Virus record (IMG/VR): IMGVR_UViG_3300030333_002703
Coordinates: 1 to 64,000 of that record
Length of the DNA: 64,000 nucleotides
Direction: 5' to 3' (one strand)
From: a virus
A program made the translations under genes and the position numbers. The notes under the pieces were generated by a model. That model had not been told where the DNA came from and searched no databases. It saw only the letters and a program-made list of their open reading frames with translations. How positions within the stretch are numbered: the first letter of the stretch is position 1; each line of letters starts with the position of its first letter. This document shows, piece by piece, positions 425-47,251 of the stretch.

Positions 425-477
425 TTCCTAGCAGTGCGCGTTATTGAGAAATTTTTTTTTCTGGGGGAACCCAATTG

Positions 478-507
478 TGATTAACTGCCATCTTATCCCG
501 TTATTTG
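478..507 (+). promoter_or_regulatory. Putative leaderless (late) promoter TGATTAACTG..TCTTATCCCGTT
   Basis: Near-identical copy at 915-943; the TAA core lies 26 nt before ATG 508. Confidence 0.6.
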
Positions 508-921
508 ATGGCGGCTCCAATTGACCTCGCGTTCGCCATTTTGAAAATGCCATATCATGGGACTAGCCTTGCCAATGCCCAAAAAATTATGGAAGAAGGT
601 TTGAAACCTCATTACGGCGAATACAGTATTCATCATGATGCCCCTCCAGTATCTTGGGCAACAGATGATTTAGGTGAAGCAGCAGAATACGCAATTGATT
701 GGAGTAGCCTTGACGATACACCTGCGATTATCCATATTCCAGATGAGATAGAACCATTTGAGAATTGGGGAGATACATACCTATACGATAAGGTGATTCC
801 ACCTGACCAATTGAGTATTCACTGGCAAGGTGAACCATATAATCCAGAACAACATGATGACGAATGGGCTTGGCGTGAATTAAATGAAGAACTCGCCCAA
901 CTAAACAACAACCCTGATTAA
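508..921 (+). CDS. ADP-ribosyltransferase-fold (Tpt1/KptA/PARP-like) protein with N-terminal tag
   Basis: YHGTS..A..I..EGLKP and WATDDLGEAAEYA motifs, C-terminal IPP; N-terminus MAAPIDLAFAILK. Confidence 0.65.
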   Translation: MAAPIDLAFAILKMPYHGTSLANAQKIMEEGLKPHYGEYSIHHDAPPVSWATDDLGEAAEYAIDWSSLDDTPAIIHIPDEIEPFENWGDTYLYDKVIPPDQLSIHWQGEPYNPEQHDDEWAWRELNEELAQLNNNPD

Positions 922-943
922 CTGTTATCTTATCCCGTTGTTC
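915..943 (+). promoter_or_regulatory. Second copy of the putative promoter
   Basis: TGATTAACTGTTATCTTATCCCGTT; TAA core 25 nt before ATG 944. Confidence 0.6.
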
Positions 944-1426
944 ATGGGCCATCCAATTGACCACGCATTTCATTTTTTGAAAAAATCAATTGACGATGAA
1001 GATTGGGATGATGACCCTACAGACCCCATGCAAAACTTTTCTTGGTGGCAGGGGGGTGACAAACCCAGTGGTGGCAAACCCGAGGAAGGTGATTGGGGTA
1101 TGCACCCTACAGATGAAATGTTTATGTCAAAACAAGGAGATTATGTCAATGCAGAAGGCCGAATCTTATGTCAAATTGAAGCAGCAAAAGGTCGAGCAGT
1201 CCCTGCCACTTGGGTGGCAGTTGACCACGTTAATACGTACTTTTGTGACCCCCACTATGATGAAGTAGAAAGAGTGAATACAGGTCCAGAAACACTTGGC
1301 CCATTAACAGAAGAATCACAAGAAGAGTATGAGATAGCAAGGCATTGGTGGGATAATCACGTTCATCATAACCCTGAAGGATGGTATGCTGAACCTGTAA
1401 CAGATACAAAAGGCAACCCTATTTAA
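944..1426 (+). CDS. Acidic hypothetical protein with N-terminal tag
   Basis: ORF; MGHPIDHAFHFLKK|S; start chosen from promoter spacing. Confidence 0.75.
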   Translation: MGHPIDHAFHFLKKSIDDEDWDDDPTDPMQNFSWWQGGDKPSGGKPEEGDWGMHPTDEMFMSKQGDYVNAEGRILCQIEAAKGRAVPATWVAVDHVNTYFCDPHYDEVERVNTGPETLGPLTEESQEEYEIARHWWDNHVHHNPEGWYAEPVTDTKGNPI

Positions 1427-1449
1427 CTGCCCCCGCTTCCCAGACTAGT

Positions 1450-4431
1450 ATGACGGACCCGTTTGAGCAGGCGTTCCAGTCAGTTCGTAAGAGACAAAGT
1501 ACGTTACATGATTGGGATGATGATGCCATTGAAGATATCGGTCTCCCTCCTAAACCTCACCCTCAACATGGTGGTTATTCTGCTTTAGACCACAGCCTGC
1601 AAAATATCATTCTTCAAGCACGACCCGAAGCAGAAAAATTAGTTGAACAATGGGGAGAAAAAGTTCCATCTTGGATGGGATTAAATGCTGATGATTTCCA
1701 TGTTGTCACTTTACCCGGACATTTGGCTCATGAGGATTATGGTGGCGGTGAACGATACACTGGTCTAGATAGAACTGCCTTACAATCAAAAAGGAGAAAA
1801 AAATTGGAGGAGGGTGCTGACAGACCTGCGCCCCAACCATTCAAAACTCGTAGTGAAATGGCGGATTACCATAATATGCATGAATCAAGTCCAAGTGAAA
1901 CTTATTCTCAATCATGGATGATGGCTCCTATTCCTCACGCATTGGCAACTTTGATGCATCGTGGAATGCCATTTGACGAGGCTGCTAATAGAATCAAAAA
2001 TGGTTTGCATGACACCCACAAATATAAGGAAACGTACAAAGATAGCGAAGATATTCACAACTTTGTAGATGCAATTGGGAATACTCATGTTCCAATCGGA
2101 CATTTAACTATGAGAGGGCCAAGAGTATCTGAAATGTACATGACTAAATTGGGAGGAGAAGATGACAAATATGGACTTCAGCATCGAATTATGCCCAATA
2201 AAAGAATGCCTGTTATGGCAGGTTTAGGACTTGGAAGATTATTACAAGGTACTATGCTTCATAGATTAGGTTCAGATGCAATGGGTAGTGACAATCGTAC
2301 CATTTTTTCTGAAGGGCAAACTCAAGCCACTAAAACACAAGCAAAAGGCATACAACAACGTCTTAGAGAAAAATTGGAGGGAGCCGTTAGTTCAAGTCCT
2401 GCAGCAAGAGGTTTCCGAAGTCGAGCGCTTAATTTGAGAGACAAAATATCAGGCACATCTCGATTCGATGACCCAAAAAAGAAATTTGAAGAAACCATGT
2501 TTGCAGGATTGGTTCCGGGTTCTGTTGACGAACAAGATGCAACAAAAAATAGATTGATAAGCACACACGCGGCACAACTGGACTTAAGACCGGGGCCACA
2601 ATATGGAGTGGACCGAAAAACATGGGAAGATTTAGGTTGGGGAGATTTGAGACCTACATATGGCGCACAACATCATTTACCAAAAATAAACAGACCTGCA
2701 TCATCTCCGGTAAATCCTAATCCGAGTTTTAGTCAGAAGCCGTGGAGCAGAGAACATTTGCGACGACAACATCGTAATCTGTTAGAAAATAAATATGGTG
2801 AAGGTGATTGGCTCGATGATGCAGCGCGCAACTATAGACAACATGAAATGACACCCTTACCGCATGAGGTTGCAGAAGTACTGGGTTTGGACACTATGAA
2901 CCCCACATTGTCAACAACAATAGATGGTCAAAATGTTCCTTTAGCAAGATTACACGGCGACCCATACGTTTGGGATATACCAGAAGCACTAACAGAAAGA
3001 ATGAACAGACCTCAAGTAGTTCGTCAAATAAGAGATAGATTGCGTGATTTTGATGAGGGTGACAACGAATTGCCTGAAGATTATTTATATCAAACACAAT
3101 TGTCACAATGGCAACCGGGTGGTCGATTGCGGGAGAAAGAGCCATTTTTCGATGACCTTCCAGATGATATTGAAACTGGCGAACCGATGGAAATAGCGTA
3201 TCGTTTGTTAAAAAGCATCATGGATTTAGGCGCTGACGATGTTTCAACGCAACCAGAACAACCGTTACAAGCACCCGCCAATGTAATGGAAGAACCACCA
3301 AGAAAAGCATTGGGTATCATGGGTCATCATGATTGGCATGACCTTGAAAGATTCGATGACAAGATTGGAGAATGGATTGACATACACGGTATGCCAACTC
3401 ACATTGTATCGGATGGAAGCAGCGGCACAGGTGCAATGGCATCACAATGGGCGCTGGACAATGACATCCCAATTATTACTCACAAACCCAACTTCCGTGG
3501 TGGCAACCGATTCACTGCACCCGCACAAAGTCGGCAACGGATTGTCAATAGTTCTGACCATATTCTTGCATTCCCATCCATCAATGGTAGTGGTACAATG
3601 GAAGGTATCACAATGGCAAGGCAAGCGGGCAAACCAGTTCATTTGCATTACATTGAACACCCACATGATACGCCCATTAGCGAAGTAGGCACAGCCGAAG
3701 AACGAGAAAGACAAAGTCCGTGGTTGTTGGAACCAACGCCTGAACGCACATCACCTGAACCCGAAGTGCCACAAAGAACTCGCAGACAAGTGGGTGCAGC
3801 GCGCGGTCATCGCGGGCGACGTGATGACAATGTTGAAACGGGCGAGCCAATGGATATCTGGTCTCGTATGTTGAAAGAGGAACAAGGTGAGTGGGTTCCC
3901 GAAGAGCAACGTATGTCCGATGATGAATTGACTCACTTGCTAACATTCCCTGACTTACCTGAAGAAGTACGCGAAGATGTATTGCGAGAGATTCAACGTC
4001 GTCAAAATATCAATACAGGCGAACCAATGGATTTGTCATACCGTTTGTTGAAAGAAAGTATGATGGGAACAAAAGGTTGGCCCGAAGAAGAAGATGAAGA
4101 TGTATGTTGTAAAAATGCCAAAGCACATTACCGAGAAGTAGCAAATAATTCACCAGCAAAAACTTTCTTAGGTGGATGGAATAGTCCTAATGACCAGTAT
4201 ATGGAATGTGCCGAGTTTGAAATGTATCTCCGTGATGAAATCGAAGGTCTCCGAGATATGGCATCCATTCCAATGGTCGCTGACGCAATTACAGAATTAG
4301 AATCAGTATTAGACAATTGGGAACATTGTGATGAATACGATTTTAATGAATATGAAGAATTAAGACCTGAAGGTAGCGAAATCTTTACCGCAGGAGAACC
4401 TATGGACTTAGCGTGGAGGATGTTCAAATGA
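1450..4431 (+). CDS. 993-aa tagged polyprotein: possible GNAT-like domain, SLOG (YspA/DUF2493-like) domain, small helical and Cys-containing domains
   Basis: Five tag copies (N-term, 3172, 3835, 4012, C-term); SLOG pattern at 3301-3651 (GIMGHHDW, IVSDGSSGTGAMA, SDHILAFP..GSGT..GI..A...GKPV). Confidence 0.75.
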   Translation: MTDPFEQAFQSVRKRQSTLHDWDDDAIEDIGLPPKPHPQHGGYSALDHSLQNIILQARPEAEKLVEQWGEKVPSWMGLNADDFHVVTLPGHLAHEDYGGGERYTGLDRTALQSKRRKKLEEGADRPAPQPFKTRSEMADYHNMHESSPSETYSQSWMMAPIPHALATLMHRGMPFDEAANRIKNGLHDTHKYKETYKDSEDIHNFVDAIGNTHVPIGHLTMRGPRVSEMYMTKLGGEDDKYGLQHRIMPNKRMPVMAGLGLGRLLQGTMLHRLGSDAMGSDNRTIFSEGQTQATKTQAKGIQQRLREKLEGAVSSSPAARGFRSRALNLRDKISGTSRFDDPKKKFEETMFAGLVPGSVDEQDATKNRLISTHAAQLDLRPGPQYGVDRKTWEDLGWGDLRPTYGAQHHLPKINRPASSPVNPNPSFSQKPWSREHLRRQHRNLLENKYGEGDWLDDAARNYRQHEMTPLPHEVAEVLGLDTMNPTLSTTIDGQNVPLARLHGDPYVWDIPEALTERMNRPQVVRQIRDRLRDFDEGDNELPEDYLYQTQLSQWQPGGRLREKEPFFDDLPDDIETGEPMEIAYRLLKSIMDLGADDVSTQPEQPLQAPANVMEEPPRKALGIMGHHDWHDLERFDDKIGEWIDIHGMPTHIVSDGSSGTGAMASQWALDNDIPIITHKPNFRGGNRFTAPAQSRQRIVNSSDHILAFPSINGSGTMEGITMARQAGKPVHLHYIEHPHDTPISEVGTAEERERQSPWLLEPTPERTSPEPEVPQRTRRQVGAARGHRGRRDDNVETGEPMDIWSRMLKEEQGEWVPEEQRMSDDELTHLLTFPDLPEEVREDVLREIQRRQNINTGEPMDLSYRLLKESMMGTKGWPEEEDEDVCCKNAKAHYREVANNSPAKTFLGGWNSPNDQYMECAEFEMYLRDEIEGLRDMASIPMVADAITELESVLDNWEHCDEYDFNEYEELRPEGSEIFTAGEPMDLAWRMFK

Positions 4432-6089
4432 ATTGGTGGGAATTATTGAAACAATATAGCGTCGATGATGATTGGGAAGATTTTGACCCCGCCCTTCATG
4501 ATGTGAAAGAGTATTTGGCAGGTGTAGAAGGTCCACACATTAGTCCATATGAAGATGTAGAGAGAGCGACAGCAGGAGACATCATCGAAGATGCGCTACG
4601 GTCTGAAAAAGAATCGCGTGGGCAAGGTGGTGCAGGTCCACCACGTGGTCCCGGTGAAGACAGACCTGCACGTGGGCAATCGGCTTCCGTACCAATTAAA
4701 CCAAGAACAGATATGGGGTATCGTAGAGGAACAGGCAGTGAACCAAGTCGCGGATATATTCGACCACGAAATACACCATTGCCACCGCCGCGAGAAAATA
4801 CAGATAGAGAACAATTCAATTATTCACGTGTGCCGCGACGTATTTTGATGCCGGGTGAAGACGCTCGTGGTAATATCCAAGAGAGCGCTCGAAATATGCG
4901 TTGGCTTGAACCACCTGCACCGGGTTCAGATGAAAGTGCTATTGATGCAGCCGTTGAGTCAATAATGGGTCGTGGTGGTGTAACTGAGTTTGGTGATTTG
5001 GTCACTCACCCCGGTTCATTGATGACTGAAAGCGACCTCGCAGACAAATATCACGGTTCACCAATTCATTTAGACACTAGTGATGAGTTTGCCAATATAG
5101 CAGATTTGTTATCAGAAGATGACCTGACCCATGATGTAGCAGGTGTAATGTCAACTGGTGAGAAATATCCAGTCGAGTTCCAAGAGATAGCCGCTGAATT
5201 ACAAGATGACCCAGATGCTCCCACACCTCCTTGGAGTGTAGATGCAATGGAAGAGGCCATTCGTTCAGGTAAGGTAACACCTGAAGAATTAGAACTGTTC
5301 ATCAATCCTGAAAATCCTGACAGACTAACCACTCGTTCAACTATTGGAATGGACCCAATGACCGCAATGGAACTTGGATTGCCCCCATTTGGCACAGATG
5401 ATACGCCTACTGCTGAACGTCGAGTGCATATTGACCGTGACCCACAAGTGCATGAAATTATGGAAACAATAGAGGACCATCCAGATGATTTCGATATGGA
5501 AAGAATTATGGAAGGCGCACATCTTGGCCCAGAACATGATATTGCAGAGCCAACCTTTGCAGGCATTCCTTTCAGAGAAGATACTGGATTTACAATGGGT
5601 GAGCCAATGACACCGTTCAATGCAGCATGGACTTTGCTGAAATTCAATACTGGTGCAGATTACGGCCAACAGTCTGCATTAGATGATGATTTATCCAATC
5701 CGACAAGGCATTGGGATGACCCATCCATGAATGACTTACGTGACCAAGATTTCATGGAATACATGGATGAGTTGTATCAACGAAAAGTAGGAGGCGACCT
5801 TGAATCCGAAGCAATTTGGAATTGGTACACCAAAAATCATCCTGAAATAACAAATCAGATTGAAGAAACATACAGTGTTCCCGGTATGGAACCCGGCGCA
5901 CCAGAAGAAGGTGGCGTTGAAAGTGGCGGTAGTAATCGAGTGAAAGTAACATCCAGTCCCAGCGCACAATTGACTGCCGCTGCCAATCATCATGGATTTG
6001 AGTTTGATGAGTTCGGTAATTTAAGCAGGATAGAATCACCGACGGAATCTCCAAAATCAAAGTCAATTATGGATTTAGGTAGTGAATAG
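4428..6089 (+). CDS. Acidic, low-complexity tagged polyprotein
   Basis: ATGA overlap with upstream stop, GGAGG RBS; MNWWELLK start, internal GEPMTPFNAAWTLLK, C-terminal KSIMDLGSE. Confidence 0.75.
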   Translation: MNWWELLKQYSVDDDWEDFDPALHDVKEYLAGVEGPHISPYEDVERATAGDIIEDALRSEKESRGQGGAGPPRGPGEDRPARGQSASVPIKPRTDMGYRRGTGSEPSRGYIRPRNTPLPPPRENTDREQFNYSRVPRRILMPGEDARGNIQESARNMRWLEPPAPGSDESAIDAAVESIMGRGGVTEFGDLVTHPGSLMTESDLADKYHGSPIHLDTSDEFANIADLLSEDDLTHDVAGVMSTGEKYPVEFQEIAAELQDDPDAPTPPWSVDAMEEAIRSGKVTPEELELFINPENPDRLTTRSTIGMDPMTAMELGLPPFGTDDTPTAERRVHIDRDPQVHEIMETIEDHPDDFDMERIMEGAHLGPEHDIAEPTFAGIPFREDTGFTMGEPMTPFNAAWTLLKFNTGADYGQQSALDDDLSNPTRHWDDPSMNDLRDQDFMEYMDELYQRKVGGDLESEAIWNWYTKNHPEITNQIEETYSVPGMEPGAPEEGGVESGGSNRVKVTSSPSAQLTAAANHHGFEFDEFGNLSRIESPTESPKSKSIMDLGSE

Positions 6090-7351: not shown

Positions 7352-7553
7352 TGATTCCTAGTAATCGCATTAATGCTTCAAGTTTAGGGTGGAAATCAGT
7401 GCCGATGCCATTTTCATCAGGTTTTTTTTCTTGTTCTTGTTCCCACGGTGCTTGAGGTGCAGAAGGCTCTACACGGTCCATATCTTCTGATACAACATCG
7501 TCAATATCGTCTTTGAGGAATGCCCATGCTTTTTCAATTGGTATGTTCATCAT
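7344..7553 (-). CDS. Small acidic protein with N-terminal tag
   Basis: MMNIPIEKAWAFLK; GGAGG RBS upstream of 7553. Confidence 0.7.
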   Translation of the reverse strand: MMNIPIEKAWAFLKDDIDDVVSEDMDRVEPSAPQAPWEQEQEKKPDENGIGTDFHPKLEALMRLLGIII

Positions 7554-8184
7554 ATTCTTGTCCTCCTTGTCCTCTAAGTTGATGTATCCAATAGTCACAT
7601 TTGTCAGCGATTTCATAATACAAGTTAAAATGTGGGTCGTCCATTCCTAACCTGTCAGCATTCCATGCTGATAAATCACCCATTTCCATCAATTTTTTTA
7701 TCATATGATTACGAAATTGTTCCCCTTCGGTAAGTGGCTCTCTTTGCATCATCGGGTCATTTTCTGATTCAAAAGTCAATTGTTCCACTCGTGGTGTAAT
7801 TCCTTCGATGTATTCTGCACCATCTATCATTCTATCAGGTTCGGTTTCATCGTAGTCATAATGTAAATCACCTACGTCAGGGTAACCTCGAAAGGTTGTA
7901 CGAGGCATTTTGATGATTGACCATGCTTTTTCAATTGGTTTGTATGTGCCACGTTCTTTGAAGTGACGTGCGCGGTTGTCGTGTGGATTTTCCAATGTGA
8001 CAGTATTGGCGCTGGTGTGAGATACGTCAGGGCCACCTTCCCCCATGATACCACGCTGACGGCGTTCTTGGTTGAGTTCTTCTCGGTATTTTACACGGTC
8101 AGGTGAGGATTCATATTTGGTATCGTATCGACGTTTATGCTCAAGCGCTTCTTTGGATTTGGCTCGCTTGACTAAGACCGTCAT
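7534..8184 (-). CDS. Two-part protein: basic HNH-like N-terminal domain + tag + acidic domain
   Basis: RR..G.MGEGGPDVSH...ENPHDNRARH resembles small phage HNH-like proteins; internal PIEKAWSIIK. Confidence 0.6.
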   Translation of the reverse strand: MTVLVKRAKSKEALEHKRRYDTKYESSPDRVKYREELNQERRQRGIMGEGGPDVSHTSANTVTLENPHDNRARHFKERGTYKPIEKAWSIIKMPRTTFRGYPDVGDLHYDYDETEPDRMIDGAEYIEGITPRVEQLTFESENDPMMQREPLTEGEQFRNHMIKKLMEMGDLSAWNADRLGMDDPHFNLYYEIADKCDYWIHQLRGQGGQEYDEHTN

Positions 8185-8237
8185 GGTATCGCCACATATA
8201 GAGTAGTTCATAACCTTCGCTGCCTTCGACCTATTAC

Positions 8238-14144: not shown

Positions 14145-14856
14145 TATGAATCCAATGGAGGTCGCTTGGTTGGTGTTAAAAGCCCCGTTGGAAGGGTATG
14201 ACTCAAACCTCACTGATGAGGAGAATACTGCTCGTCGCCAACCTCAACAACCTACCATTACTGATTTCACCAGATACACTAGACCTCAATTAGAACAAAT
14301 GGTTGTCATGTTCCAAAATGAATTGATGCGTCGTGGACACGCATCTCTTTCATCTGAAATATCAATTCCAAATATGGACAGATATATGAGTGGTGAAGGA
14401 GGGTATCAACGAGAAGAACTTGATGCCGCACCTACAATACCAACTGATGAACTAGGCGAAGCGATTCTGACAGAAATGACGCCTGAAGAACACGCACAAG
14501 AGATACAGAGATTAATGACGCAATTGATGAGTGGGGAAACATTGTCACCTGAAGAATTACTATTTTTACAACAAGATGGCCCAGAAACACAACAACAAGC
14601 ACGTGACGCTATTTGGAGTAATTATGATGCAGTTGAATCAACTACACCAACAGCAACAGTTCGCGCAGGACTACCGGCAACTACACCAACAGCAACAGAT
14701 ATCCCTACTGATGATGCGGTACGGCAGATACTCAATAGTCATGGTATCGAACATCATCTAATTGAACCTCACCACATAAGGCAATATCAAGGATTTTATC
14801 GAATGATGAGGCGGCATCCAACAGAAGAAGAAATAGATGCACACATAGGTGATTAA
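14137..14856 (+). CDS. Tagged protein with PIP-box-like motif
   Basis: MNPMEVAWLVLK|A; QPTITDF at 14248-14268. Confidence 0.75.
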   Translation: MSNMNPMEVAWLVLKAPLEGYDSNLTDEENTARRQPQQPTITDFTRYTRPQLEQMVVMFQNELMRRGHASLSSEISIPNMDRYMSGEGGYQREELDAAPTIPTDELGEAILTEMTPEEHAQEIQRLMTQLMSGETLSPEELLFLQQDGPETQQQARDAIWSNYDAVESTTPTATVRAGLPATTPTATDIPTDDAVRQILNSHGIEHHLIEPHHIRQYQGFYRMMRRHPTEEEIDAHIGD

Positions 14857-15868
14857 CATGAATCCACTAGAAATTGCATGGGTGATGTTGAAAAATGACC
14901 GTGGTGATGTATTGGAACGTGTTCTTAATTTAATTGAAAGTCCTGCAAATCGAGATATATCGGATGAAGAATTGGCATCAGAATGGGAAAGATTATTGCT
15001 AGGAGTTGGACAGGCTTACAATGTATCACCACATGATGTTGACCGTACATTAGGAACTCATTTTATCACAGATGAAGGTTCGGAACCTGACCATGAATTG
15101 GGTCATACTGAATTGGATAGTTTGAAACCACAATTAGAAGAATTACTGCATGATATGTTAGATACTGGATTGCATTTCAATGCACCACAACGGCGCGGCG
15201 CGGTTACGACGAGCGCCCCCGCGTACCAAAACCCGCCGACGGCGACGGCGAGGCCAGCGGAACGACCCGAGCACGACCTCGGCAATCCAGCAGCCAACGC
15301 CGCCGTCGCGCGAGACCGTGGATTACCATATGATGAGTATGACCCCGGATGGATGCCCCCTATATGTGAAGAGTGTGACGACGCTGATGATACAATGTAT
15401 GGAGGTCGTGACCCAGATACGGGCGAACCATTGTATGTATGCGCTTACTCGGGTCACGACGACTACAATTACGAGCATTTGTACGATGATTACGGATATT
15501 TGTGGATGGATGGTGAAGGTTATTTGACTACACCATTGACACCGCCAGACCCTGCAGAGTATGATTCTCATGATAATTCAGAACGCGGCGACCCTCGACC
15601 AATGACAAATCGTGCCGCCCTCCGCGCGCTCGGTGTCCGTCCGGCTCCCGGTGAGGAAATCCGCCCCGATGCCCGACAAACTGTACCGGGTCTACCTATA
15701 CCATTGACGGCAGCAAGTCAAGGTGAAGGTCGTGTAGGTCCTGATGTCATGGATGAACGTGAGTTAATGCGTTATGAAGCACCACAATTGCGAGAAATGA
15801 TTCGACGTATTGGTGAAGAATTGACACGGCGTGGTTATGGTGATAGATACCAAGGGGTGACTGAATGA
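14849..15868 (+). CDS. Tagged mosaic protein with Zn-ribbon-like motif and GC-rich inserts
   Basis: MNPLEIAWVMLK; CEEC...C..GH; shares RY..PQL..M...EL.RRG module with the upstream gene. Confidence 0.75.
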   Translation: MINMNPLEIAWVMLKNDRGDVLERVLNLIESPANRDISDEELASEWERLLLGVGQAYNVSPHDVDRTLGTHFITDEGSEPDHELGHTELDSLKPQLEELLHDMLDTGLHFNAPQRRGAVTTSAPAYQNPPTATARPAERPEHDLGNPAANAAVARDRGLPYDEYDPGWMPPICEECDDADDTMYGGRDPDTGEPLYVCAYSGHDDYNYEHLYDDYGYLWMDGEGYLTTPLTPPDPAEYDSHDNSERGDPRPMTNRAALRALGVRPAPGEEIRPDARQTVPGLPIPLTAASQGEGRVGPDVMDERELMRYEAPQLREMIRRIGEELTRRGYGDRYQGVTE

Positions 15869-17238
15869 CACAAACAACTGGTAGCGATACCCGAATGTAC
15901 AATCCTCGGTCAGAATCCGAGGAGTTCATGTATGCAGATGACAAAGAAGTCTTTGGTGAAGGCGACCCCGAACATCGTGATTTGGAAGCCCAGAAAAAGA
16001 AAGAAGAGCGGGAAGAGCGGGAACGCAAATGGGCAGGTCTGCACCATTTGAAAATCAAAACTGCGAAACCGGCAATGGAAGAACCATTTGCTGAATCTAC
16101 ACCAATGGAACAACAAGGTGAATTATCTGATTTGACCGGCCCATCGGGTAGTATGGGTGAAAATCTAGATGTAGCCACAGGCGCACGAACTGGCACAGGT
16201 TCTGCATTGGGTGAAATGCCACCTCAATTACCGGCTATGGGTATTTTCGGTCAAACCAAATCTGAACCAATGGAATCCGCATGGGATGATTTGATTATCA
16301 AGGTCTTAGGCGACCCCGTTGGGACATCGACATTGGAATCTGCTGACCGTGCTATGCGAAGTGGCATTGGACCCGGTGGAGCCAAAGGGCGTAAAGGCCA
16401 TCGTGTGAAACCATTCCCACGCCCAATTGGTGGTCGTTCACCTTGGGCGGCATCGAAACGACGTGCTTCTGTTCATCAGCGTTTATTCGGAAATATCAAA
16501 GGGCGTGGCGGAAAGAGTATTCGTTCCAAATCTAAAACAGGTATGATGCGCCAACCGTATGCATTGAGTCCTCACCATTTGGGTGTTGGTGTAATGTGGG
16601 GTAAGCCACGCCCGGGTCGTTTGGAAGACCCCGGTTCATACATTTCGTGGCTGGGTCGTCAATCTGCATATCGTGGTGCAGGTGGTTCTGGTGTCATGTT
16701 ACCATATACACCTCACGCCCCACGTGAAAGATTGGGGCAACTTGGATTCCCCGGCGCACAAGGTTCTGGTCGTCAGCGAATGTTACCCGGTGCATCTCAA
16801 TTGGCGCGAGAAGGTCCACGTCGTGCAACACGTGGCCCACCACGACCAAAAGGAATGGGTCGCGGTATTCCTTCACCATTGTCGCCACGACCAATGGCAT
16901 CTCCATTAATGGCGAAATCTGAATTGGAAGAATTGGTAGAAGTATCGAAAGCATATGTTCGTCAATTGGGGCCGGGTTTGAGCCACATAGATATGGGCGA
17001 CTTCCGCGAATTATTACGTGAACTCAAACACCTACTTGCCAAATTACCTCGTAAAAGTTTGATGGGTATTGCAGGTGGTGGTAGTCGTAGTGAAGGTCAA
17101 GTTAATGCTCCTGCAAATGGCCCGCAAAAAACTTCACGTAATGAAGGGGCGACAGAAACTGACCCTGAAGATGACCCACGATATTGGGGCGCAGACCCAT
17201 CACAATTGACACGACGTGGCGGTGTACACCATGCATGA
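15865..17238 (+). CDS. Protein with acidic N-terminus, tag and very basic Arg/Gly/Pro-rich core (putative internal head protein)
   Basis: KSEPMESAWDDLIIK then a R/K/G/P-rich segment ending MAK|SE. Confidence 0.7.
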   Translation: MTQTTGSDTRMYNPRSESEEFMYADDKEVFGEGDPEHRDLEAQKKKEEREERERKWAGLHHLKIKTAKPAMEEPFAESTPMEQQGELSDLTGPSGSMGENLDVATGARTGTGSALGEMPPQLPAMGIFGQTKSEPMESAWDDLIIKVLGDPVGTSTLESADRAMRSGIGPGGAKGRKGHRVKPFPRPIGGRSPWAASKRRASVHQRLFGNIKGRGGKSIRSKSKTGMMRQPYALSPHHLGVGVMWGKPRPGRLEDPGSYISWLGRQSAYRGAGGSGVMLPYTPHAPRERLGQLGFPGAQGSGRQRMLPGASQLAREGPRRATRGPPRPKGMGRGIPSPLSPRPMASPLMAKSELEELVEVSKAYVRQLGPGLSHIDMGDFRELLRELKHLLAKLPRKSLMGIAGGGSRSEGQVNAPANGPQKTSRNEGATETDPEDDPRYWGADPSQLTRRGGVHHA

Positions 17239-32303: not shown

Positions 32304-32355
32304 TATTGTAGTATCATAGGTGGTATCATATACCATTACAACACGTGGTGTGCCA

Positions 32356-33747
32356 ATGGTTCTTAGCGTAGCCCGGCCAGCCAGCGCAGTTTTGCTTAAG
32401 GCACACCGAGTTGACGACCTTGTGATTGCGGGCTATGCGAGTGTCGAACTTGTGGATAAACAAGGTGACTTGATTACTACAGGTGCGCTCAATAAGGCAT
32501 TCAAGAAGTTCATGGCGAACCCGCAATATAGCAATGTGCAACTAGCACATTCTAACATCCAAGTGGGTGAAGTCATTCCAGAATATACTGATACAAATGG
32601 CCGTATGTGGAAGTCCGAGGTAGATGATACCGGACTATTCGTAGTTATCAAACTACGAAATGACATTGAAAAGGCCCGAGAAGTTGCCGCAGAAATTAGA
32701 AAAGGCAATCTTCGTTCATTTTCCATTGGTGGTCAGGCGTTTAAGCGCGTCAACAAATCGGACGGAATGCGCGGTTCATACCGTGAAATCCAAGATATGG
32801 AACTTCACGAAGTAACAATTTGTGAAAAGGGCATCAATACGGAATCTACCTTTAAGATATTGAAGGAGGACAAAAACATGGCAGAAACAGAAGTTGTGGA
32901 ACAGTTGCACAATGTTCTGGAGCGTCTATCCAAGCGATTGGATGAGTCGGAAGGCGTGGAAAAGGGCAAGCCCCCATTCCTTGAAGACGACAAAGACGAC
33001 AAGGACAGCGGCGACGACAAGAAAGAAGGTAAGTCCGACAAGGACAAAGACGAAAAGATGGCATATTCAGATGAAGATGGCGACCAAGCGAACAAGGGAT
33101 TCGATGACGTTATCACAACTGAATACCTCAATTGGATGGAGAACACCCTAAAGGGCGCAGGTGTCGATACACACGCTGCTCGCGCACACTTTGACAGTGT
33201 GAACAAGGGATACCGACCTGAAGACAAGAGCGACCACCGAGGCCAACCCCCATTGGGTATTGTTGGCGAAGGTATCAGCGCACCCAAAGCCAATTTCGGT
33301 AGCGGGAAGCCTAAGGGTAACAAGTTCGCAATCCGCGCATCTCAAGATGCATGGTCGCCACCACGTGGCAACCAATTTGTCATCAAGGAAAACGTGACCG
33401 CTGCACAGGTCGAACAGGCTTACGAAGTCTACAAGGCCGCAGCAATGGAGCAGCAGTTCAAGGGCGAACTCAACGAAGCATTCGCAGAACGCCTAAACAA
33501 CGAACTCATGCACAAGCAAAATGCAGAAGAAAAGGCAGCATACGATGCCCGAACCGATGTATCCAGCCTACAGAAGGCTGTCCTTGAATTGGCAAACCGC
33601 ATTGACAACATTTCATCCGGTGAAGGTAGCGTATCAATCCGCAAATCTGCACCATCCGTTGAGATTCCCACAACAGAAGCATTGGCTGACATCAGTTGGT
33701 CCGATGTTCACAGCCTTGCTAACAAGGCACTAATGGGAGGCGAGTAA
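32356..33747 (+). CDS. Prohead protease (HK97-type) fused to C-terminal scaffold
   Basis: IAGYAS..VDKQGD, H.N..VG, GLFV, SFSIGG, LHEVTIC; charged coiled-coil C-terminus; directly upstream of MCP; start inferred from promoter spacing. Confidence 0.88.
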   Translation: MVLSVARPASAVLLKAHRVDDLVIAGYASVELVDKQGDLITTGALNKAFKKFMANPQYSNVQLAHSNIQVGEVIPEYTDTNGRMWKSEVDDTGLFVVIKLRNDIEKAREVAAEIRKGNLRSFSIGGQAFKRVNKSDGMRGSYREIQDMELHEVTICEKGINTESTFKILKEDKNMAETEVVEQLHNVLERLSKRLDESEGVEKGKPPFLEDDKDDKDSGDDKKEGKSDKDKDEKMAYSDEDGDQANKGFDDVITTEYLNWMENTLKGAGVDTHAARAHFDSVNKGYRPEDKSDHRGQPPLGIVGEGISAPKANFGSGKPKGNKFAIRASQDAWSPPRGNQFVIKENVTAAQVEQAYEVYKAAAMEQQFKGELNEAFAERLNNELMHKQNAEEKAAYDARTDVSSLQKAVLELANRIDNISSGEGSVSIRKSAPSVEIPTTEALADISWSDVHSLANKALMGGE

Positions 33748-33748
33748 T

Positions 33749-34891
33749 ATGGCACGAGATTATATCCGAACAATACAGGACATGGAGCGATACTATTACG
33801 GCGCAGGTAACGTAAGTGGCTACTCATACAGTGGCGCAGACATCCTCAAGGCCGATGCACCGCTTCTAAGCACGACAGCAGGAACATACCAAGCAATCTA
33901 TGGTCGCAAGGTCTGGTCGCAACTGAACCAAGAGTTCAACGCATTCAGCATTTTGCCCAAGAAGCCTTGGGAGAAGAGTGGTTGGAGAATCATTACCTCT
34001 AAGCCATCGTTCACCAAGGGTGGCGGTGTTGCGGAGAATGCAACCCTTCCTGACACGACCAAACCAACCTTCCTACACGTGGCTGCAAAGCCCAAGACGG
34101 TTGCTCACACATTCGATATGAGTGAAGTGGCAATCTTCCTTGCCGACAAGGACGACGGCCTCGGTGACATCCGACAGGTATTGAAGGAAGAAATGGGTAA
34201 GCACCACGCAGACCACGTGAACGTAATGCTCACAACTGACGTGGAAACACCAGCCGGTAACGATTTCGAGTCTCTTGACCGATTGACAACCAACCCATCA
34301 ACCATCAACAACGCGAACAGTTACGTGTCAGCAAACACTGACAACGATATGTACTCGATTACACGTGACAGCGGTGGAGATGCATGGGAGGCTGCTGAAG
34401 TCAGCGCATCAGGAACAAAAGGCACTAACCGAACATTGAGCCTTGACCATCTTGATACCATGTTCCAGCAAATCTGGACTCGTGGTGGTAATCCAAAGGT
34501 CATGTTCACTGGCTATGACACACTCATGCGTGTTCAGCAACTACTACAGACCCAGCAGCGCTTCATGGAAACCAAGCGTGTCACCCCATCGTTCAACGGT
34601 GTAAAGGGTGTACCCGGTATCGAAGCAGGATTCATTGTGGCTACCTACAACGGTGTCCCAATCATCCCAAGCAAGGACGTACAAACTGACGGCATCAGTC
34701 GTATCTACTACCTCGACACGGATTATTTGTGGTTCCAAACCGCAATTCCAACCCAGTACTTTGAGAGCGGTATTGAATCCGGCGACCCATTCGCCATCAA
34801 CCGCCTCGGTCAGGAAGGTCTGTATCGAACAATGGGTGAACTGATTGTGTCTTTCTACGGCGCACAGGGGAGTGTTCGTGACCTCTCGTGA
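33749..34891 (+). CDS. Major capsid protein (HK97 fold)
   Basis: Follows protease; 380 aa; G.V.E.A.LP E-loop region, YNGVPIIPS; codon usage of a highly expressed gene. Confidence 0.9.
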   Translation: MARDYIRTIQDMERYYYGAGNVSGYSYSGADILKADAPLLSTTAGTYQAIYGRKVWSQLNQEFNAFSILPKKPWEKSGWRIITSKPSFTKGGGVAENATLPDTTKPTFLHVAAKPKTVAHTFDMSEVAIFLADKDDGLGDIRQVLKEEMGKHHADHVNVMLTTDVETPAGNDFESLDRLTTNPSTINNANSYVSANTDNDMYSITRDSGGDAWEAAEVSASGTKGTNRTLSLDHLDTMFQQIWTRGGNPKVMFTGYDTLMRVQQLLQTQQRFMETKRVTPSFNGVKGVPGIEAGFIVATYNGVPIIPSKDVQTDGISRIYYLDTDYLWFQTAIPTQYFESGIESGDPFAINRLGQEGLYRTMGELIVSFYGAQGSVRDLS

Positions 34892-37011: not shown

Positions 37012-37970
37012 TGGTTGAATCATGTAAAGTTTGTAATGCTGAATCATCACCTGATTCATATTACTGTAGAGTCTGTCGTGAGTCGATGGGAACTGACGAA
37101 TCATCAACATCTACTGATTTTCGTATGAGTTACCCTATGGCTTTTGACTATGCATGGGCGTTGATGAAAAACTTTACACCTATACCTATATCTGATGAAG
37201 AGGCAAAAAAACTCTTGATAGCGCATGGTATTCCTCATGGTGATGGTTCATCAAGAGAACATGGAGAAGATGCACCACCTAATCCATTACGGCATACCTA
37301 TCCTCCTACAAGTGTAATGGCGATTTCTCGTGGTATTCCACAAGAAATTGCACAAAGCCAAGCCATTGGTATAGGGCATCATCCATTGTCGGCCTTGTAT
37401 CGAGATGAAGAGGGTAAGGGAAATCCCATTGAAACGACAGATATTTCTACTGACCCTTTGAAACCCAGCGCCACTACACCTATACCTTGGAACCGCCAAC
37501 GTGAATTAGGGAGGCCAATGTCTTTCACAGATGAGATGTCAGCAGATGCCGCAAATACCATGCATAGAGATATGGCACGAACCAATCCAAACCCGCCAGA
37601 ACAACGGCAACGAAGTCGTCAAGAAGCACCATATTTGTATGACGAACAAGGGCGATATGTTGGCGAAGGTCGTGGTAAAACAGAAAATGTCATTGCGACA
37701 TCCAATGATACTGTCAGCGTAGTTATGCAGATTCTCAAACAAGGAGATTTGAATAAATCGGCTTGGGAAGCGAGGCGAGAAGGACGGCGATACGGACCCT
37801 ATGGCCCTCCGACAGATGAATGGGAGTGTGATGAATGCGGTAAGCGCATCGGATTTACTGAAATCGGTGGTCAAGCCAAAAACGGCCCTCTTTGCATAGG
37901 GTGTGTTCAAAGGTATGTCGAGAACAGAAGAAGGAATAATCCACGTTGGATGTATGAGGAAGGGGCATGA
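37011..37970 (+). CDS. Tagged mosaic protein with N- and C-terminal Zn ribbons
   Basis: CKVC..CRVC; FRMSYPMAFDYAWALMK; CDEC..CIGC. Confidence 0.7.
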   Translation: MVESCKVCNAESSPDSYYCRVCRESMGTDESSTSTDFRMSYPMAFDYAWALMKNFTPIPISDEEAKKLLIAHGIPHGDGSSREHGEDAPPNPLRHTYPPTSVMAISRGIPQEIAQSQAIGIGHHPLSALYRDEEGKGNPIETTDISTDPLKPSATTPIPWNRQRELGRPMSFTDEMSADAANTMHRDMARTNPNPPEQRQRSRQEAPYLYDEQGRYVGEGRGKTENVIATSNDTVSVVMQILKQGDLNKSAWEARREGRRYGPYGPPTDEWECDECGKRIGFTEIGGQAKNGPLCIGCVQRYVENRRRNNPRWMYEEGA

Positions 37971-37975
37971 TTTGA

Positions 37976-39577
37976 ATGCCCACAGTATTTCAACCCGGTG
38001 AACGCGCACCAGAACCTATTGACCCAGATGCAGTCATCTATACGACCGCACAGAAAGTCGGTGAACTACTACAGATTCCACCCGCAGACCCGGTGGATTT
38101 AGCAGGTAACGCATCTGCATCTGATACATCTGTCGATATATCACCCATTGATTTTCGGAATACTGGATTTGAAGTAGGGGATGAAATTGAGATTGAAAGT
38201 GATGCAACATTGGTTGAGACACGTACAATTACTGCCATTACATTGAGTAGTGGCAATGCACGATTGGCATTCACAGGTGGTCTATCGTATGCACATACTA
38301 CTGCCAACAATGCCACCGTGCGTAACAATGCTATATTCACCAATGGCAAACTACGTGGTGTATCTAGAACACACGTTGAGACCTTGATTAAACGTCACCA
38401 AGACCGCATTGACAACATCTGCAATAACTCATGGCGACCTATGTTACAGGTTGCTGAATACAAGATATTTGATACTTACAAGCCATACCGACGCCGATAC
38501 TACACAGACTATGTTGGGACCACACCACTCTTATTCCGTAATGTTCAGCAGATTCTACGATTAGAGGTATGGCAAGGGCAAGATTACAAGGAATTGGCAG
38601 GTGCTGAAGTCCGATTGAAAATCATTGACCATTCAGCATTGGCAAGTGATGGTGTGTATCTGTGTCCGGGTGGTGGCGGTGTATTCACTTTGAACGTGGG
38701 TACAGATAGCGATACATGGAATGCATCGTTTGACAATGCGACAACCGCACAACAACTTGCAGACCTCATCAATAAGGATGGTCGTAGAAACAAAAATGCA
38801 GTCGCGTCATCGACCAATTACACATTGGAAGATTCGTATTCATCTAGTGGTACTGTGCAAGCCAAAGTCCACAATGAGTTCTTGGCATCAGCCAATGCTG
38901 ATTACGGCATCGCACGTGTCAAAATCAGTAGTATGCGTCGAGCGGCAGGTGGCACACAATCTACTATTGCCGCATCAGACCTGACAAACATTGAGTTTAG
39001 TCAACATGGTACTGCTACTACAACATCGACAAGTGTATCTAGCACTACTGTCAATGTCGCTTCTACTGCCGATTTCGTATCGCATGGACTCATTATGGTA
39101 GGTAGTGGCACATCAGTTGAGGTCTTGTCATATACGGGTAAAACCGCGACATCATTTACAGGATGCGCCAACGTCAAAGGAACCCCATTGACGACACTGA
39201 ATACAGGTGGAACGACAGCATTCCAATACCAATTCGCCATTGACTATCAAGGTTCCACCGCAACAGGTGATGAAGCCCGATTGAAGGATTGGTGGTTTGA
39301 CCCTGAAATGGGTGTCATATATTTCAACAATTCATATCCATTCTTTGAGTGGAATGCGGTCAAAGTTACGTATGTGTATGGCGAGCGGTACGTCGAAAAG
39401 GCCATTGAGGACATCGTGACCAAGTTGGTTGCTATGGACTTGATTACGGCTGATGACCGTTCAGTTCTAATTCCCGAAGGAACCACCAACATTGACCTAG
39501 GTTCCAAGTATCAACTATTCAAGCAACAGGTTGCCGAGACCTTGCCACGATATGTGGAGGTTGTTACACTTGACTAG
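37976..39577 (+). CDS. Head-tail adaptor/neck protein with inserted beta domains
   Basis: IYTTAQKV..L, I.RHQDRID, VKVTYVYG..VEKAIEDIVTKLVA connector-like motifs; position. Confidence 0.65.
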   Translation: MPTVFQPGERAPEPIDPDAVIYTTAQKVGELLQIPPADPVDLAGNASASDTSVDISPIDFRNTGFEVGDEIEIESDATLVETRTITAITLSSGNARLAFTGGLSYAHTTANNATVRNNAIFTNGKLRGVSRTHVETLIKRHQDRIDNICNNSWRPMLQVAEYKIFDTYKPYRRRYYTDYVGTTPLLFRNVQQILRLEVWQGQDYKELAGAEVRLKIIDHSALASDGVYLCPGGGGVFTLNVGTDSDTWNASFDNATTAQQLADLINKDGRRNKNAVASSTNYTLEDSYSSSGTVQAKVHNEFLASANADYGIARVKISSMRRAAGGTQSTIAASDLTNIEFSQHGTATTTSTSVSSTTVNVASTADFVSHGLIMVGSGTSVEVLSYTGKTATSFTGCANVKGTPLTTLNTGGTTAFQYQFAIDYQGSTATGDEARLKDWWFDPEMGVIYFNNSYPFFEWNAVKVTYVYGERYVEKAIEDIVTKLVAMDLITADDRSVLIPEGTTNIDLGSKYQLFKQQVAETLPRYVEVVTLD

Positions 39578-40007
39578 TCCAATTGATTTCGCATGGGCTG
39601 TAATGAAAGCACCTATTGATTCTCACGGTTATTCAGATTTACCCCGCGATATGTTCGATGAAAATGTAGGAATAATGTCTAATCAAGAAGAGCAAGATTG
39701 GTATGATTTTATAGCGAAACTGCCTTTTGATATGGACAACGATTTGACTGATGAAGAACAACAAATGATTGTTGGTATTTTCAATAGACTGTATGAAGGT
39801 GATGCTCACATACTACACCCTGATGACGATTTTGATGCAAGGGGCATGATATTCATTGAGGATTATGGGGAAGTGCCAAAAGAAGATTACTATAATGCCG
39901 AATGGTGGTGGAATCATCCACACGGACACATCAATAGCATACGAGATGAGTATGAATCTATTGAAGAACTTCAAGCAGATTTAGACAAGGAACGAGGGGC
40001 GGTTTGA
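39570..40007 (+). CDS. Acidic tagged protein
   Basis: TTG start after GGAGG; TSPIDFAWAVMK|A. Confidence 0.7.
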   Translation: MTSPIDFAWAVMKAPIDSHGYSDLPRDMFDENVGIMSNQEEQDWYDFIAKLPFDMDNDLTDEEQQMIVGIFNRLYEGDAHILHPDDDFDARGMIFIEDYGEVPKEDYYNAEWWWNHPHGHINSIRDEYESIEELQADLDKERGAV

Positions 40008-40390
40008 TGCACCCAATTGACCACGCATGGGCCGTATTGAAAGCCAATGAAGTAGTTATTGATGGTGTCACATACGTGCCACAACAAGAACAGCCGCAAC
40101 AAGAAGAACCTGCACCTACTGGAAGTGATGTACCGTGGGCTGGTCGCACTATTGCGAATCAAGGTGGATGGAAAGATTTTGGTCGCCGTATGATGGCAGG
40201 ATTTAGAACCCGCGATGACCAAGGTAATAGAAGTACTATGATGGATAAATTACGCGGAGCAATGGAGCAACGCCAACAACAATTGTCTGCGCCCAATCCT
40301 GAAGCAGATTCACCATTAGCGACGGAAGAAGAAAAACCTAGGTCTATTATGGATTTAGTGCCAGATGAGGATGACCCCGAGGCATGGTGA
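40004..40390 (+). CDS. Tagged low-complexity protein with SIMDL motif
   Basis: MHPIDHAWAVLK|A; RSIMDLVP. Confidence 0.72.
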   Translation: MMHPIDHAWAVLKANEVVIDGVTYVPQQEQPQQEEPAPTGSDVPWAGRTIANQGGWKDFGRRMMAGFRTRDDQGNRSTMMDKLRGAMEQRQQQLSAPNPEADSPLATEEEKPRSIMDLVPDEDDPEAW

Positions 40391-47247: not shown

Positions 47248-47251
47248 TATT

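Follow-up and report, generated by a model that had tools for sequence, protein, structure and literature searches.

The window analysed here, a stretch of 64,000 nt, derives from a magrovirus, that is, a tailed virus infecting marine group II archaea and abundant in the ocean. Two adjacent ORFs in it, of 993 and 553 aa, are composed of unrelated modules, either folding independently or disordered, that are joined by a repeated helix of 12-15 residues (Table 1). We refer to this repeat as the tag; it is a short amphipathic helix within flexible linkers, its consensus is hydrophobic-x-T/A-G-E-P-M-D-(I/L)-A-W-R-L-L-K, and no mention of such a system was found in the literature searched.

A sequence-only reading of the window had held that tags split the 993-aa ORF into units and that this ORF ends on a tag, and we find exactly this arrangement: tags lie at aa 2-14 (weak), 577-588, 798-809, 857-868 and 982-993, the last of them (the final 12 residues) abutting the stop codon, and the units between them comprise 562, 209 (SLOG), 47 and 113 (Cys-containing) residues. 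The 553-aa ORF does, as that reading proposed, open with a truncated tag and carry one internal copy. Its true start is the ATG at 4428, which overlaps the TGA of the 993-aa ORF (aaATGAat), and five aligned homologs (41-97% identity) share its N-terminal pattern MNWW-x-hydrophobic-hydrophobic-K.

Table 1. Positions in the window of the two cassette ORFs, their parts, other tagged genes and head genes.
Feature	Position	Strand	Basis or remark
N-terminal tag of ORF 505-921	511..546	+	tag search
N-terminal tag of ORF 938-1426	947..982	+	tag search
993-aa tag-jointed cassette protein	1450..4431	+	weak N-terminal tag, U1, tag, SLOG unit, tag, U3, tag, Cys unit, terminal tag
Degenerate N-terminal tag TDPFEQAFQSVRK	1453..1491	+	9.4 bits; model helix 4-13
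Unit U1 (aa 15-576)	1492..3177	+	homolog comparison and AlphaFold2 model
Internal tag 1, GEPMEIAYRLLK	3178..3213	+	after DDIET; helix 579-590, flanks pLDDT<50
SIMDL peptide	3214..3228	+	immediately follows tag 1
Unit U2, YpsA-like SLOG domain	3214..3840	+	Pfam, phrog_289, structure matches
Internal tag 2, GEPMDIWSRMLK	3841..3876	+	after DNVET; left breakpoint of population variants (nt 3857)
Unit U3, 47-aa helical cassette	3877..4017	+	comparison with relatives, AlphaFold2 model
Internal tag 3, GEPMDLSYRLLK	4018..4053	+	after QNINT; breakpoint at last codon
Unit U4, Cys-containing helical bundle	4054..4392	+	pLDDT about 90 over aa 882-970
Terminal tag 4, GEPMDLAWRMFK	4393..4428	+	after IFTA; stop at 4429-4431
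553-aa second cassette protein	4428..6089	+	short N-terminal tag, V1, tag, V2, C-terminal SIMDL
Short N-terminal tag MNWWELLK	4428..4451	+	homolog alignment
Internal tag variant with 3-aa insertion, GEPMTPFNAAWTLLK	5598..5642	+	after conserved IPFREDTGFTM; helix 396-407
Unit V2	5643..6086	+	helical domain aa 432-482; ends SIMDLGSE
N-terminal tag of small ORF ending at 7344	7512..7547	-	tag search
Internal tag (aa 90-101) of ORF 7534-8211	7909..7944	-	after conserved phrog_6437 unit
N-terminal tag of ORF 14137-14856	14146..14181	+	tag search
N-terminal tag of ORF 14849-15868	14858..14893	+	tag search
Internal tag SEPMESAWDDLIIK of ORF 15865-17238	16261..16302	+	comparison with relatives
Prohead serine protease (Peptidase_S78) fused to charged scaffold-like C-terminal half	32320..33747	+	
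HK97-fold major capsid protein	33749..34891	+	34% identity to halovirus HVTV-1 capsid protein
Tag variant PMAFDYAWALMK near start of ORF 37011-37970	37134..37169	+	tag search
N-terminal tag of ORF 39531-40007	39573..39608	+	tag search
N-terminal tag of ORF 40004-40390	40007..40042	+	tag search

Units and joints of the two ORFs

AlphaFold2 models the tags of the 993-aa ORF as helices at aa 4-13, 579-590, 801-809, 863-871 and 984-992, each bordered by linkers of pLDDT<50 that run between separate folded blocks; the tags are thus predicted to sit at domain borders, the outcome expected from the sequence-only reading, and one ORF would encode several folding units in the manner of a viral polyprotein. 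The model of the 553-aa ORF has the same pattern of tag helix and linker, with low overall confidence.

The first unit, U1, is predicted to fold in its N-terminal half (aa ~41-90 and ~150-335, moderate to high confidence) and to be disordered over aa 335-577, where the alignment is very shallow. Its homologs fall into three clusters only, and the search for a function gave only a weak GNAT-like lead. The degenerate tag ahead of it occurs in the homolog P0001 and is missing from P0002 and P0003.

The second unit, U2, carries the clearest assignment. Its core (aa 610-758, pLDDT about 97) is most similar in structure to YpsA (2nx2, Z 12.2, rmsd 2.9, 123 residues aligned), followed by ShosA (Z 11.3), DprA (11.2) and ThsA-SLOG (9.4), and a Foldseek match was obtained at E 2e-4. 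It also matches phrog_289, and with Pfam PF10686 it scores 23.2 bits, which is under the gathering cut-off of 28.2. A phmmer search returned more than 300 stand-alone homologs at E<=0.001, and G625, G655 and G659 are nearly invariant across 71 sequences. Model and alignment together identify U2 as a predicted SLOG domain, with a Rossmann-like, YpsA/DprA-like fold and Gly-rich nucleotide-binding loops.

Within the 553-aa ORF, the V1 unit is predicted to be disordered (the alignment is very shallow here as well), and several relatives with a V1-like unit (e.g. L002 542-2353) end just past the tag and lack V2. The SIMDL peptide that follows tag 1 is a second short motif, shared with the C-terminal motif of the 553-aa ORF; tagged proteins bear such a motif, SIMDL or PDLF-like, beside the tag.

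Sequence and distribution of the tag

When the six-frame translation of the window was searched with a 12-position profile at a threshold of 9 bits, 13 matches were obtained, whereas 50 within-ORF shuffles averaged 0.06; the tags are real and non-random, far above chance. Roughly 60 copies occur across 20 related loci, and five complete genomes (about 107-110 kb) carry 6-18 tags each, concentrated in one or two neighbourhoods. In G001, the genome where head genes could be placed, the tags adjoin the head module, and in the best-placed complete genome tagged genes are missing from the replication half. By position, the unique contexts divide into 39 N-terminal, 58 internal and 17 C-terminal tags.

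The Pro, Asp, Ala, Trp and terminal Leu-Lys of the tag are tightly conserved. There are systematic differences between internal and N-terminal tags (GEPMD...R in the former, M-x-P-F-D in the latter), and an upstream extension, hydrophobic-x-Thr/Ala-Gly-Glu, is conserved at internal and C-terminal tags and absent from N-terminal tags. De-duplication by flanking sequence left 45 contexts, in which a hydrophobic residue occupies position -5 in 76% (19% in the background) and T or A occupies position -3 in 67% (11% in the background); after the final Lys the flank comparison shows no conservation, position +10 having no preference. The codons for Gly, Glu, Pro and Asp vary synonymously, so the conservation acts on the protein, and the codons at the conserved upstream positions (-5, -3) are also variable.

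The residues ahead of the internal tags in the two ORFs are IET, VET, INT, FTA and FTM, each followed by GE, in agreement with the sequence-only reading, which had further seen echoes of these contexts in other head proteins. One such echo stands, QTK|SE (16255) being part of the true internal tag of ORF 15865-17238, but the other two do not: 'FRM|S' (37128) and 'VQM|N' (4425) are residues around start codons and were rejected as cleavage contexts.

Exchange of modules at the tags

Relatives and metagenome variants of the locus lend good support to the proposal that fusion at the tag lets genes grow, split and reshuffle; the comparison of orthologous loci strongly supports module shuffling at the tags. 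The SLOG module alone occurs in at least seven architectures among relatives. Three pairs of near-identical viruses differ by inserts of 267, 169 and 320 aa between duplicated tags, with the crossovers inside the tag; the paired sequences are 88-98% identical in the downstream flank and, in two of the three pairs, in the upstream flank as well. Overall, a tag lies no more than 5 aa away from 18% of the homology breakpoints, compared with 5% expected.

Metagenome contigs from other studies contain three forms of the locus, whose breakpoints lie within tag 2 (nt 3857) and at the end of tag 3 (nt 4051-4056); the last codon of tag 3 (4051-4053) is both the right breakpoint of runs X2/X3 and the site of a 237-nt insertion in X4. 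U3 is missing in P0001-P0003, has different cassettes in its place in P0004 and X2/X3, and is unchanged in run X5. U4 is found after SLOG, before SLOG (P0026) or as a gene of its own (L003 1677-2357), and in P0001 the terminal tag continues in frame into a 41-aa zinc-ribbon-like unit. In relatives the units stand alone or in a different order, modules being added, dropped and reordered at the joints. The same holds elsewhere in the window: relatives of ORF 15865-17238 have unrelated cassettes inserted at its tag, and the phrog_6437 unit of ORF 7534-8211 occurs in relatives ahead of a tag, behind one or as the last part of long, unrelated proteins.

Proposed function and known counterparts

We lean, if not strongly, toward a tag with two functions, the likeliest of those considered: an address helix for head loading that works independently of position, and an in-frame recombination joint. 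The tag serves as a joint because the same in-frame sequence flanks every module, and the comparisons above show cassettes entering, leaving and changing order, and joining or separating as genes, with the reading frame kept. As an address, the tag would be a docking peptide active at the N-terminus, internally or at the C-terminus, through which very different proteins would attach to a single shared partner, most plausibly the procapsid interior; the modules would then be carried in the head as cargo. Such carriage has indirect support from the clustering of tags, which adjoin the head genes where these could be placed. The protease-scaffold ORF, through its scaffold half, is a candidate receptor (and also a candidate cutter), with the major capsid protein as the alternative candidate; the magrovirus itself is uncultured, and HVTV-1, the closest cultured relative by capsid protein, lacks the tag. 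The S78 prohead protease may also cut beside the tag, with the T/A|G-E junction as the most plausible site, but no result requires such a cut. The differences between internal and N-terminal tags, and an upstream extension confined to non-N-terminal tags, are unexplained by a pure docking role.

On a rival reading the locus would encode true polyproteins of interchangeable effectors. The tag would then bring the precursor into the procapsid and also mark cut sites for the S78 protease, the 993-aa product giving about four cargo proteins with tags trimmed on one or both sides, to be injected with the DNA. The extension (-5 hydrophobic, -3 T/A) with its variable codons fits such a role, and a T/A|G cut would leave two residues ahead of Pro, which is the register of the M-x-P present in 64% of N-terminal tags; moreover, unrelated modules that fuse and split freely are most easily tolerated when they are separated afterwards, and the protease gene lies in the same late region. 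Nevertheless, we consider this reading unlikely, if a serious contender. The excision on both sides envisaged in the sequence-only reading is without sequence support, since position +10 shows no preference and nothing is conserved past the final Lys, and it makes no sense for the many tags at an extreme N- or C-terminus; 17 unique tags end proteins, where a cut ahead of the tag frees only a peptide. The scaffold half of the protease ORF, the usual substrate of such proteases, has no tag (the entire ORF gave no profile match above background), and the conserved upstream residues could equally cap the helix or extend a docking surface. If the polyprotein reading were true, the SLOG nucleotide-binding module could sponge or degrade a host immune signal, and the in-frame tag would let populations exchange effectors by recombination.

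Docking need not involve the head: uncleaved multi-domain proteins could gather by their tags on a host chaperone, on a factor of replication or defence, or on a hub protein of the virus; they could also gather on the cell membrane, where the tag would act as an in-plane amphipathic anchor. A multivalent motif that works anywhere resembles short linear motifs, the helix is amphipathic with Trp and Lys, and a second docking-type peptide (SIMDL or PDLF-like) stands beside it; against this, its core residues are far more tightly conserved than those of generic membrane helices, and tagged genes cluster, beside head genes where these could be placed, and are missing from the replication half of the best-placed complete genome. 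We regard a non-capsid hub as improbable. Least credible of all, and very improbable in our judgement, is that the ATG of P-M-D is an internal translation start by which the long ORFs are made as several proteins. Met follows Pro in 86% of internal vs 15% of N-terminal tags, and the codons GGA GAA CCT ATG of the terminal tag resemble a ribosome-binding site and start codon, but the Gly position is GGC, GGT, GGA or even Ser (AGC/AGT), and just 7 of the 47 internal tags examined read GGAG. A ribosome-binding site is therefore not conserved, and beginning at Met would remove the invariant Pro and the conserved G-E.

Several known systems resemble the tag in part. In the giant phages phiKZ, 201phi2-1 and SPN3US the prohead protease is reported to cut many head and ejection proteins at a short motif as the head matures, some into several retained pieces (PMC7411985, PMC10052503). 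Those sites comprise three residues and carry no helix, the enzyme resembles T4 gp21 in type, unlike the magrovirus S78 protease, and cassette shuffling at the sites, as seen at magrovirus tags, is not known. Encapsulin cargo-loading peptides are short, N- or C-terminal, and dock diverse cargo inside an HK97-fold shell; the magrovirus capsid protein also has the HK97 fold, and binding of the tag to it is putative. Unlike the helical tag, the encapsulin peptides form extended strands rich in Gly, Ser and Ile; cargo proteins do not carry them as internal repeats, and they are not known to act as sites of recombination.

In polymorphic toxins (VENN of CdiA, PxxxxDPxGL of Rhs, MuF-toxin fusions in phage heads) a short peptide borders swappable cassettes and supplies the homology for recombining in new ones. 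Inserts bounded by duplicated tags behave like such cassettes, and by sequence comparison the magrovirus cassettes likewise appear to recombine at a conserved demarcating motif. Polymorphic toxins, however, have a single variable C-terminal cassette and an immunity gene, whereas here several serial cassettes are each flanked by the motif, which also heads ordinary small genes; family and structure comparisons found no toxin family in the units of the two ORFs, and no immunity-like small gene was seen downstream of them.

The capsid targeting sequence (CTS) of T4, borne by IPI-III and Alt, loads proteins onto the scaffold core and can carry foreign ones (Rao and Black 2010, PMC3012670). CTS and tag have no sequence similarity, and the magrovirus protease is of the S78 (HK97) family, unlike T4 gp21, loading and cutting here being putative. 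The CTS is strictly N-terminal and is found on small, separate genes, and the gp21 protease cleaves it off after Glu. The tag, in contrast, also occurs internally or at the C-terminus and links modules in frame, the resulting proteins reaching about 1200 aa; an N-terminal leader on each cargo is not what we find, given that 39 of 114 unique contexts are N-terminal and that four of the five tags in the 993-aa ORF are not. What the two systems have in common is that a short peptide alone is conserved among diverse, fast-changing proteins encoded near head genes. T-even phages too have variable internal-protein genes, and T4 cargo consists of anti-defence proteins, consistent with the SLOG module here.

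The tag in two adjacent proteins and their predicted structures

The window is from a magrovirus, a tailed virus of marine group II archaea (Poseidoniales). Magroviruses rank among the most abundant archaeal viruses of the surface ocean, and we know of none in culture. Two adjacent ORFs near the left end of the window carry repeated copies of a short helical tag; in the 993-aa ORF these copies joint the units U1, U2 (a SLOG unit), U3 (47 aa, helical) and U4 (the Cys unit), and in the 553-aa ORF the units V1 and V2. All of the tag copies that a sequence-only reading had listed in the two ORFs are present; the motifs FRM|S and VQM|N, which it took for echoes of the tag flanks in other head proteins, are merely residues around start codons. 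The second ORF, initially listed from a GTG at 4413, almost certainly starts at the ATG at 4428, which overlaps the upstream stop as ATGA, so that its N-terminus reads MNWWELLK. Five aligned homologs (41-97% identity) keep the N-terminal pattern MNWW-x-hydrophobic-hydrophobic-K, and they also keep the unusual internal tag, GEPMTPFNAAWTLLK, with its three-residue insertion.

Positions of the tagged proteins, short motifs and neighbouring features in the window
Feature	Position	Strand	Remarks
993-aa ORF	1450-4431	+	
Tags of the 993-aa ORF	aa 2-14, 577-588, 798-809, 857-868, 982-993	+	first copy weak; stop codon immediately after last
SIMDL after tag 1	3214-3228	+	directly follows the tag
553-aa ORF	4428-6089	+	
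Extended pre-tag element	5565-5597	+	
Internal tag of the 553-aa ORF	5598-5642		
SIMDL at C-terminus of the 553-aa ORF	6063-6077	+	
HMG-CoA-lyase-like gene	6141-6980	+	PF00682, E 2e-25
ORF with phrog_6437 unit	7534-8211		
phrog_6437 unit	7942-8211	-	~90 aa
Conserved anchor gene	10790-11767		
Large terminase	20518-21957		
Portal	23452-25383		
1904-aa ORF	26589-32303	+	between portal and protease
S78 prohead protease	32320-33747		fused to scaffold-like tail
L-L-K element of the protease	32380-32400	+	
HK97-fold capsid protein	33749-34891		
Giant ORF	47186-64000	+	>5605 aa, extends past window end

A tag profile of 12 positions, built from the window's own tags, scores the seeds at 9.4 bits or more and everything else at 4.9 bits or less. 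It gives 13 matches of at least 9 bits in the window, where 50 shuffles within ORFs average 0.06; this comparison is circular for the seed tags, and the independent test is the related loci and genomes. There the profile finds roughly 60 copies across 20 related loci and 6-18 copies per genome in five complete magrovirus genomes; a scan of HVTV-1, a cultured relative, returned 0 matches at E ≤ 10. In the complete relative genomes the tagged genes are grouped into one or two neighbourhoods; for the one genome whose head genes could be placed, they adjoin the head module and are absent elsewhere. A cassette string more extreme than that of the window is found in one complete relative of 108.6 kb, G002 (IMGVR_UViG_3300030419_003599), which has at 34-2577 (+) one 1205-aa open frame with seven tags ~100-170 aa apart.

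The 114 unique tag contexts (39 N-terminal, 58 internal and 17 C-terminal) fall into two sequence types, M-x-P-(F/I)-(D/E)-x-A-W-x-L-L-K at N-termini and (G/S)-E-P-M-D-(I/L)-A-(W/Y/F)-R-L-L-K at internal and C-terminal sites. The codons for Gly, Glu, Pro and Asp vary synonymously, indicating that selection acts on the tag peptide. An alternative at the nucleotide level, i.e. that GEPM (GGA GAA CCT ATG) conceals an internal translation start with its ribosome-binding site, was rejected: no more than 7 of 47 tags have GGAG, and codon choice at Gly, Glu and Pro differs between tags. A second short motif, SIMDL, occurs twice alongside the tags (see table), and in other lineages (homologous proteins P0006-P0036) the linker ahead of the SLOG unit contains repeated PDLF, PNLLDLG or SLFDYE peptides with acidic runs after them. 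In many cases a terminal tag follows an extended conserved element, (I/L)-P-(W/F)-(N/D)-E-(E/D)-T-G-F-T-x, seen in the window, in loci L003 and L014 and in proteins P0012, P0014, P0026 and P0036; since it closes units that are otherwise unrelated, it suggests a larger module of ~25 residues belonging to one tag subtype.

The AlphaFold2 model of the 993-aa ORF (71-sequence alignment, mean pLDDT 60.5) shows the tags as short helices at residues 4-13, 579-590, 801-809, 863-871 and 984-992, each flanked by segments with pLDDT <50. Between them lie the folded blocks: parts of the N-terminal half of U1 (residues ~41-90 and ~150-335), the SLOG unit (610-758, pLDDT ~97), two helices in U3 and a helical bundle in the Cys unit (882-970). 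The models thus place the tags as isolated helices between folded blocks, at domain borders and not within folded domains, as the modular reading of these proteins had anticipated. At the level of the predicted fold the SLOG assignment of U2 is solid, with YpsA (2nx2) as the best structure match (Z 12.2) followed by ShosA, DprA and ThsA-SLOG; its Pfam score is under the family cut-off. Foldseek and VIA-align searches with the whole model return essentially SLOG only. For the Cys unit they give only generic helical bundles at Z ~7, which is under the informative level for helical folds, and the Atlas gives nothing usable; U1 has a weak GNAT-like lead only (Atlas, TM 0.25-0.31). The model of the 553-aa ORF is poor (pLDDT 44.6) because its alignment holds six sequences only; in it both tags still stand as isolated helices, V2 has one helical domain predicted with confidence, and the disorder that this poor model predicts for V1 is not established.

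Cassettes are gained, lost and rearranged at the tag

A peptide-pattern search of IMG/VR did not find close relatives of the 993-aa ORF; relatives were reached via the conserved anchor gene and via phmmer against 1.8 billion representative proteins, from which sequences were retrieved for architecture comparison. The closest relatives read U1-tag-SLOG-tag-Cys-tag, without U3, and in another form the same string runs on into a zinc-ribbon-like unit where the stop would be. Many lineages have an N-terminal tag and SLOG without U1; the order is reversed in Cys-tag-SLOG-tag-further units, and a CxxCxGxG unit is found duplicated between tags. When ~100 tag-bearing proteins were split at their tags and the pieces clustered, the SLOG unit appeared in at least seven contexts, and the phrog_6437 unit was found on either side of a tag and also closing four long proteins unrelated to one another. 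This latter unit also has homologs at 48-57% identity in the marine cyanophages S-CBS2, S-CRES1-3, P60, S-RIP1 and NATL2A-133, making it a module common to bacterial and archaeal viruses of the same habitat. Gene growth and fusion at tags, as proposed from the sequence, are well supported by this gain, loss and reordering of units, with no fixed architecture among the relatives.

The clearest examples come from three pairs of near-identical viruses. The 418-aa L015 gene and the 685-aa L014 gene match at 97% identity on either side, and their two alignments overlap in the tag alone, so that L014 carries a 267-aa cassette between two tag copies. L007 and L010 differ by a 169-aa insert, and a minus-strand gene of L015 differs from its L014 counterpart by a 320-aa insert with flank identities of 98% downstream and 60% upstream; in nucleotide alignments of the three pairs the crossovers fall inside the tag. 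Over all pairs, 18% of homology breakpoints are no more than 5 aa away from a tag versus 5% expected (maximum 8% in 200 randomisations), a figure that understates the effect since BLAST ends are noisy.

The same joints vary among natural forms of this locus. Four public runs of marine metagenomes (X2-X5; four listed studies) supplied contigs that were compared with 1450-6089. X5 has the window sequence across U3, so the form seen in the window does not stem from misassembly. X2 and X3, whose results are identical and which are possibly one data set filed twice, track the window to nt 3857, inside tag 2, then carry ~274 nt of different sequence and rejoin it in the final codon of tag 3, at nt 4051; this form agrees with the homologous protein P0004, which has other cassettes in the place of U3. 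X4 retains U3 and has an additional 237 nt exactly at 4051-4056. Counting the relatives that lack U3, four forms of this joint are known, with every breakpoint in or at a tag. Together, these results show that the tag is a conserved, position-independent linker helix at which cassettes are gained, lost and rearranged.

What the tag may do

We propose that the tag would dock its carriers on a single common partner. The most plausible such partner would be the interior of the procapsid, given that the tagged genes cluster and, where placed, adjoin the head module, and given that HK97-fold shells bind short cargo peptides. It is also favoured by analogy with the capsid targeting sequence of phage T4, the closest working analogy to the tag. 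That sequence is the sole common feature of diverse internal anti-defence proteins (PMC3012670). In function the tag system would resemble a T4-type targeting signal joined with the demarcating motifs of polymorphic toxins. It belongs in neither family, since a T4-type signal is N-terminal only, whereas the magrovirus tag is not, and since the toxin and immunity pairs of polymorphic toxins are lacking here.

The sequence-only reading had suggested that the tag is cut out on both sides. Cutting by the S78 protease at the tag is speculative, and its sole sequence hint is the upstream extension of internal tags: in the 45 contexts remaining after those with similar flanks were removed, hydrophobic residues occupy position -5 in 76% (19% background) and T or A occupies position -3 in 67% (11% background), and a cut at T/A|G-E would leave a two-residue register before Pro as in the N-terminal tags. 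Excision on both sides is opposed by the downstream flank, where no residue is conserved after the tag's Lys in the same 45 contexts, by the many tags that sit at protein termini, and by the absence of the tag from the scaffold region. Docking on a head component is our preferred reading.

The magrovirus papers that were searched by keyword contain no mention of tags, targeting signals or polyproteins. With one peptide on about a dozen proteins per genome, a candidate virion cargo or accessory proteome could be read directly from sequence, one that turns over via cassette exchange as fast as population variants arise. Should the tag prove to load its carriers, it would offer a natural handle, usable at any position in a protein, for packaging foreign cargo in archaeal capsids of the HK97 type; should cleavage prove true, these genes would represent a polyprotein strategy that is unusual in a tailed DNA virus. 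The SLOG module and the other cassettes are candidate counter-defence factors against Poseidoniales immunity, of which, to our knowledge, almost nothing is known.

Head genes and other neighbours

The capsid protein shares 34% identity with its counterpart in halovirus HVTV-1. Near the N-terminus of the protease, x-hydrophobic-L-L-K-[G/S/A] is present in 80 of 80 homologs (L038-L117), ~8 residues ahead of the AGYASVE strand and often preceded by P-x-D/E-G. Its ending resembles the tag, and it gives no score with the tag profile. It could represent a remnant of the tag or a site of autoprocessing, or it may simply form the first beta-strand of the S78 fold. The 1904-aa ORF holds a tag-like GEPRHPKWVLLRK at ~nt 31206 and, at residues 1451-1547, a weak ATP-dependent DNA ligase-like stretch that scores under the Pfam cut-off; HVTV-1 has large ORFs in the matching position, one of them annotated as a zeta toxin. 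The giant ORF may encode a fibre or adhesin-like protein, as it is free of tags and lies downstream of the tail genes. Directly 3' of the cassette proteins, the HMG-CoA-lyase-like gene is kept in 12 related loci at 32-49% identity and is likely an auxiliary metabolic gene.
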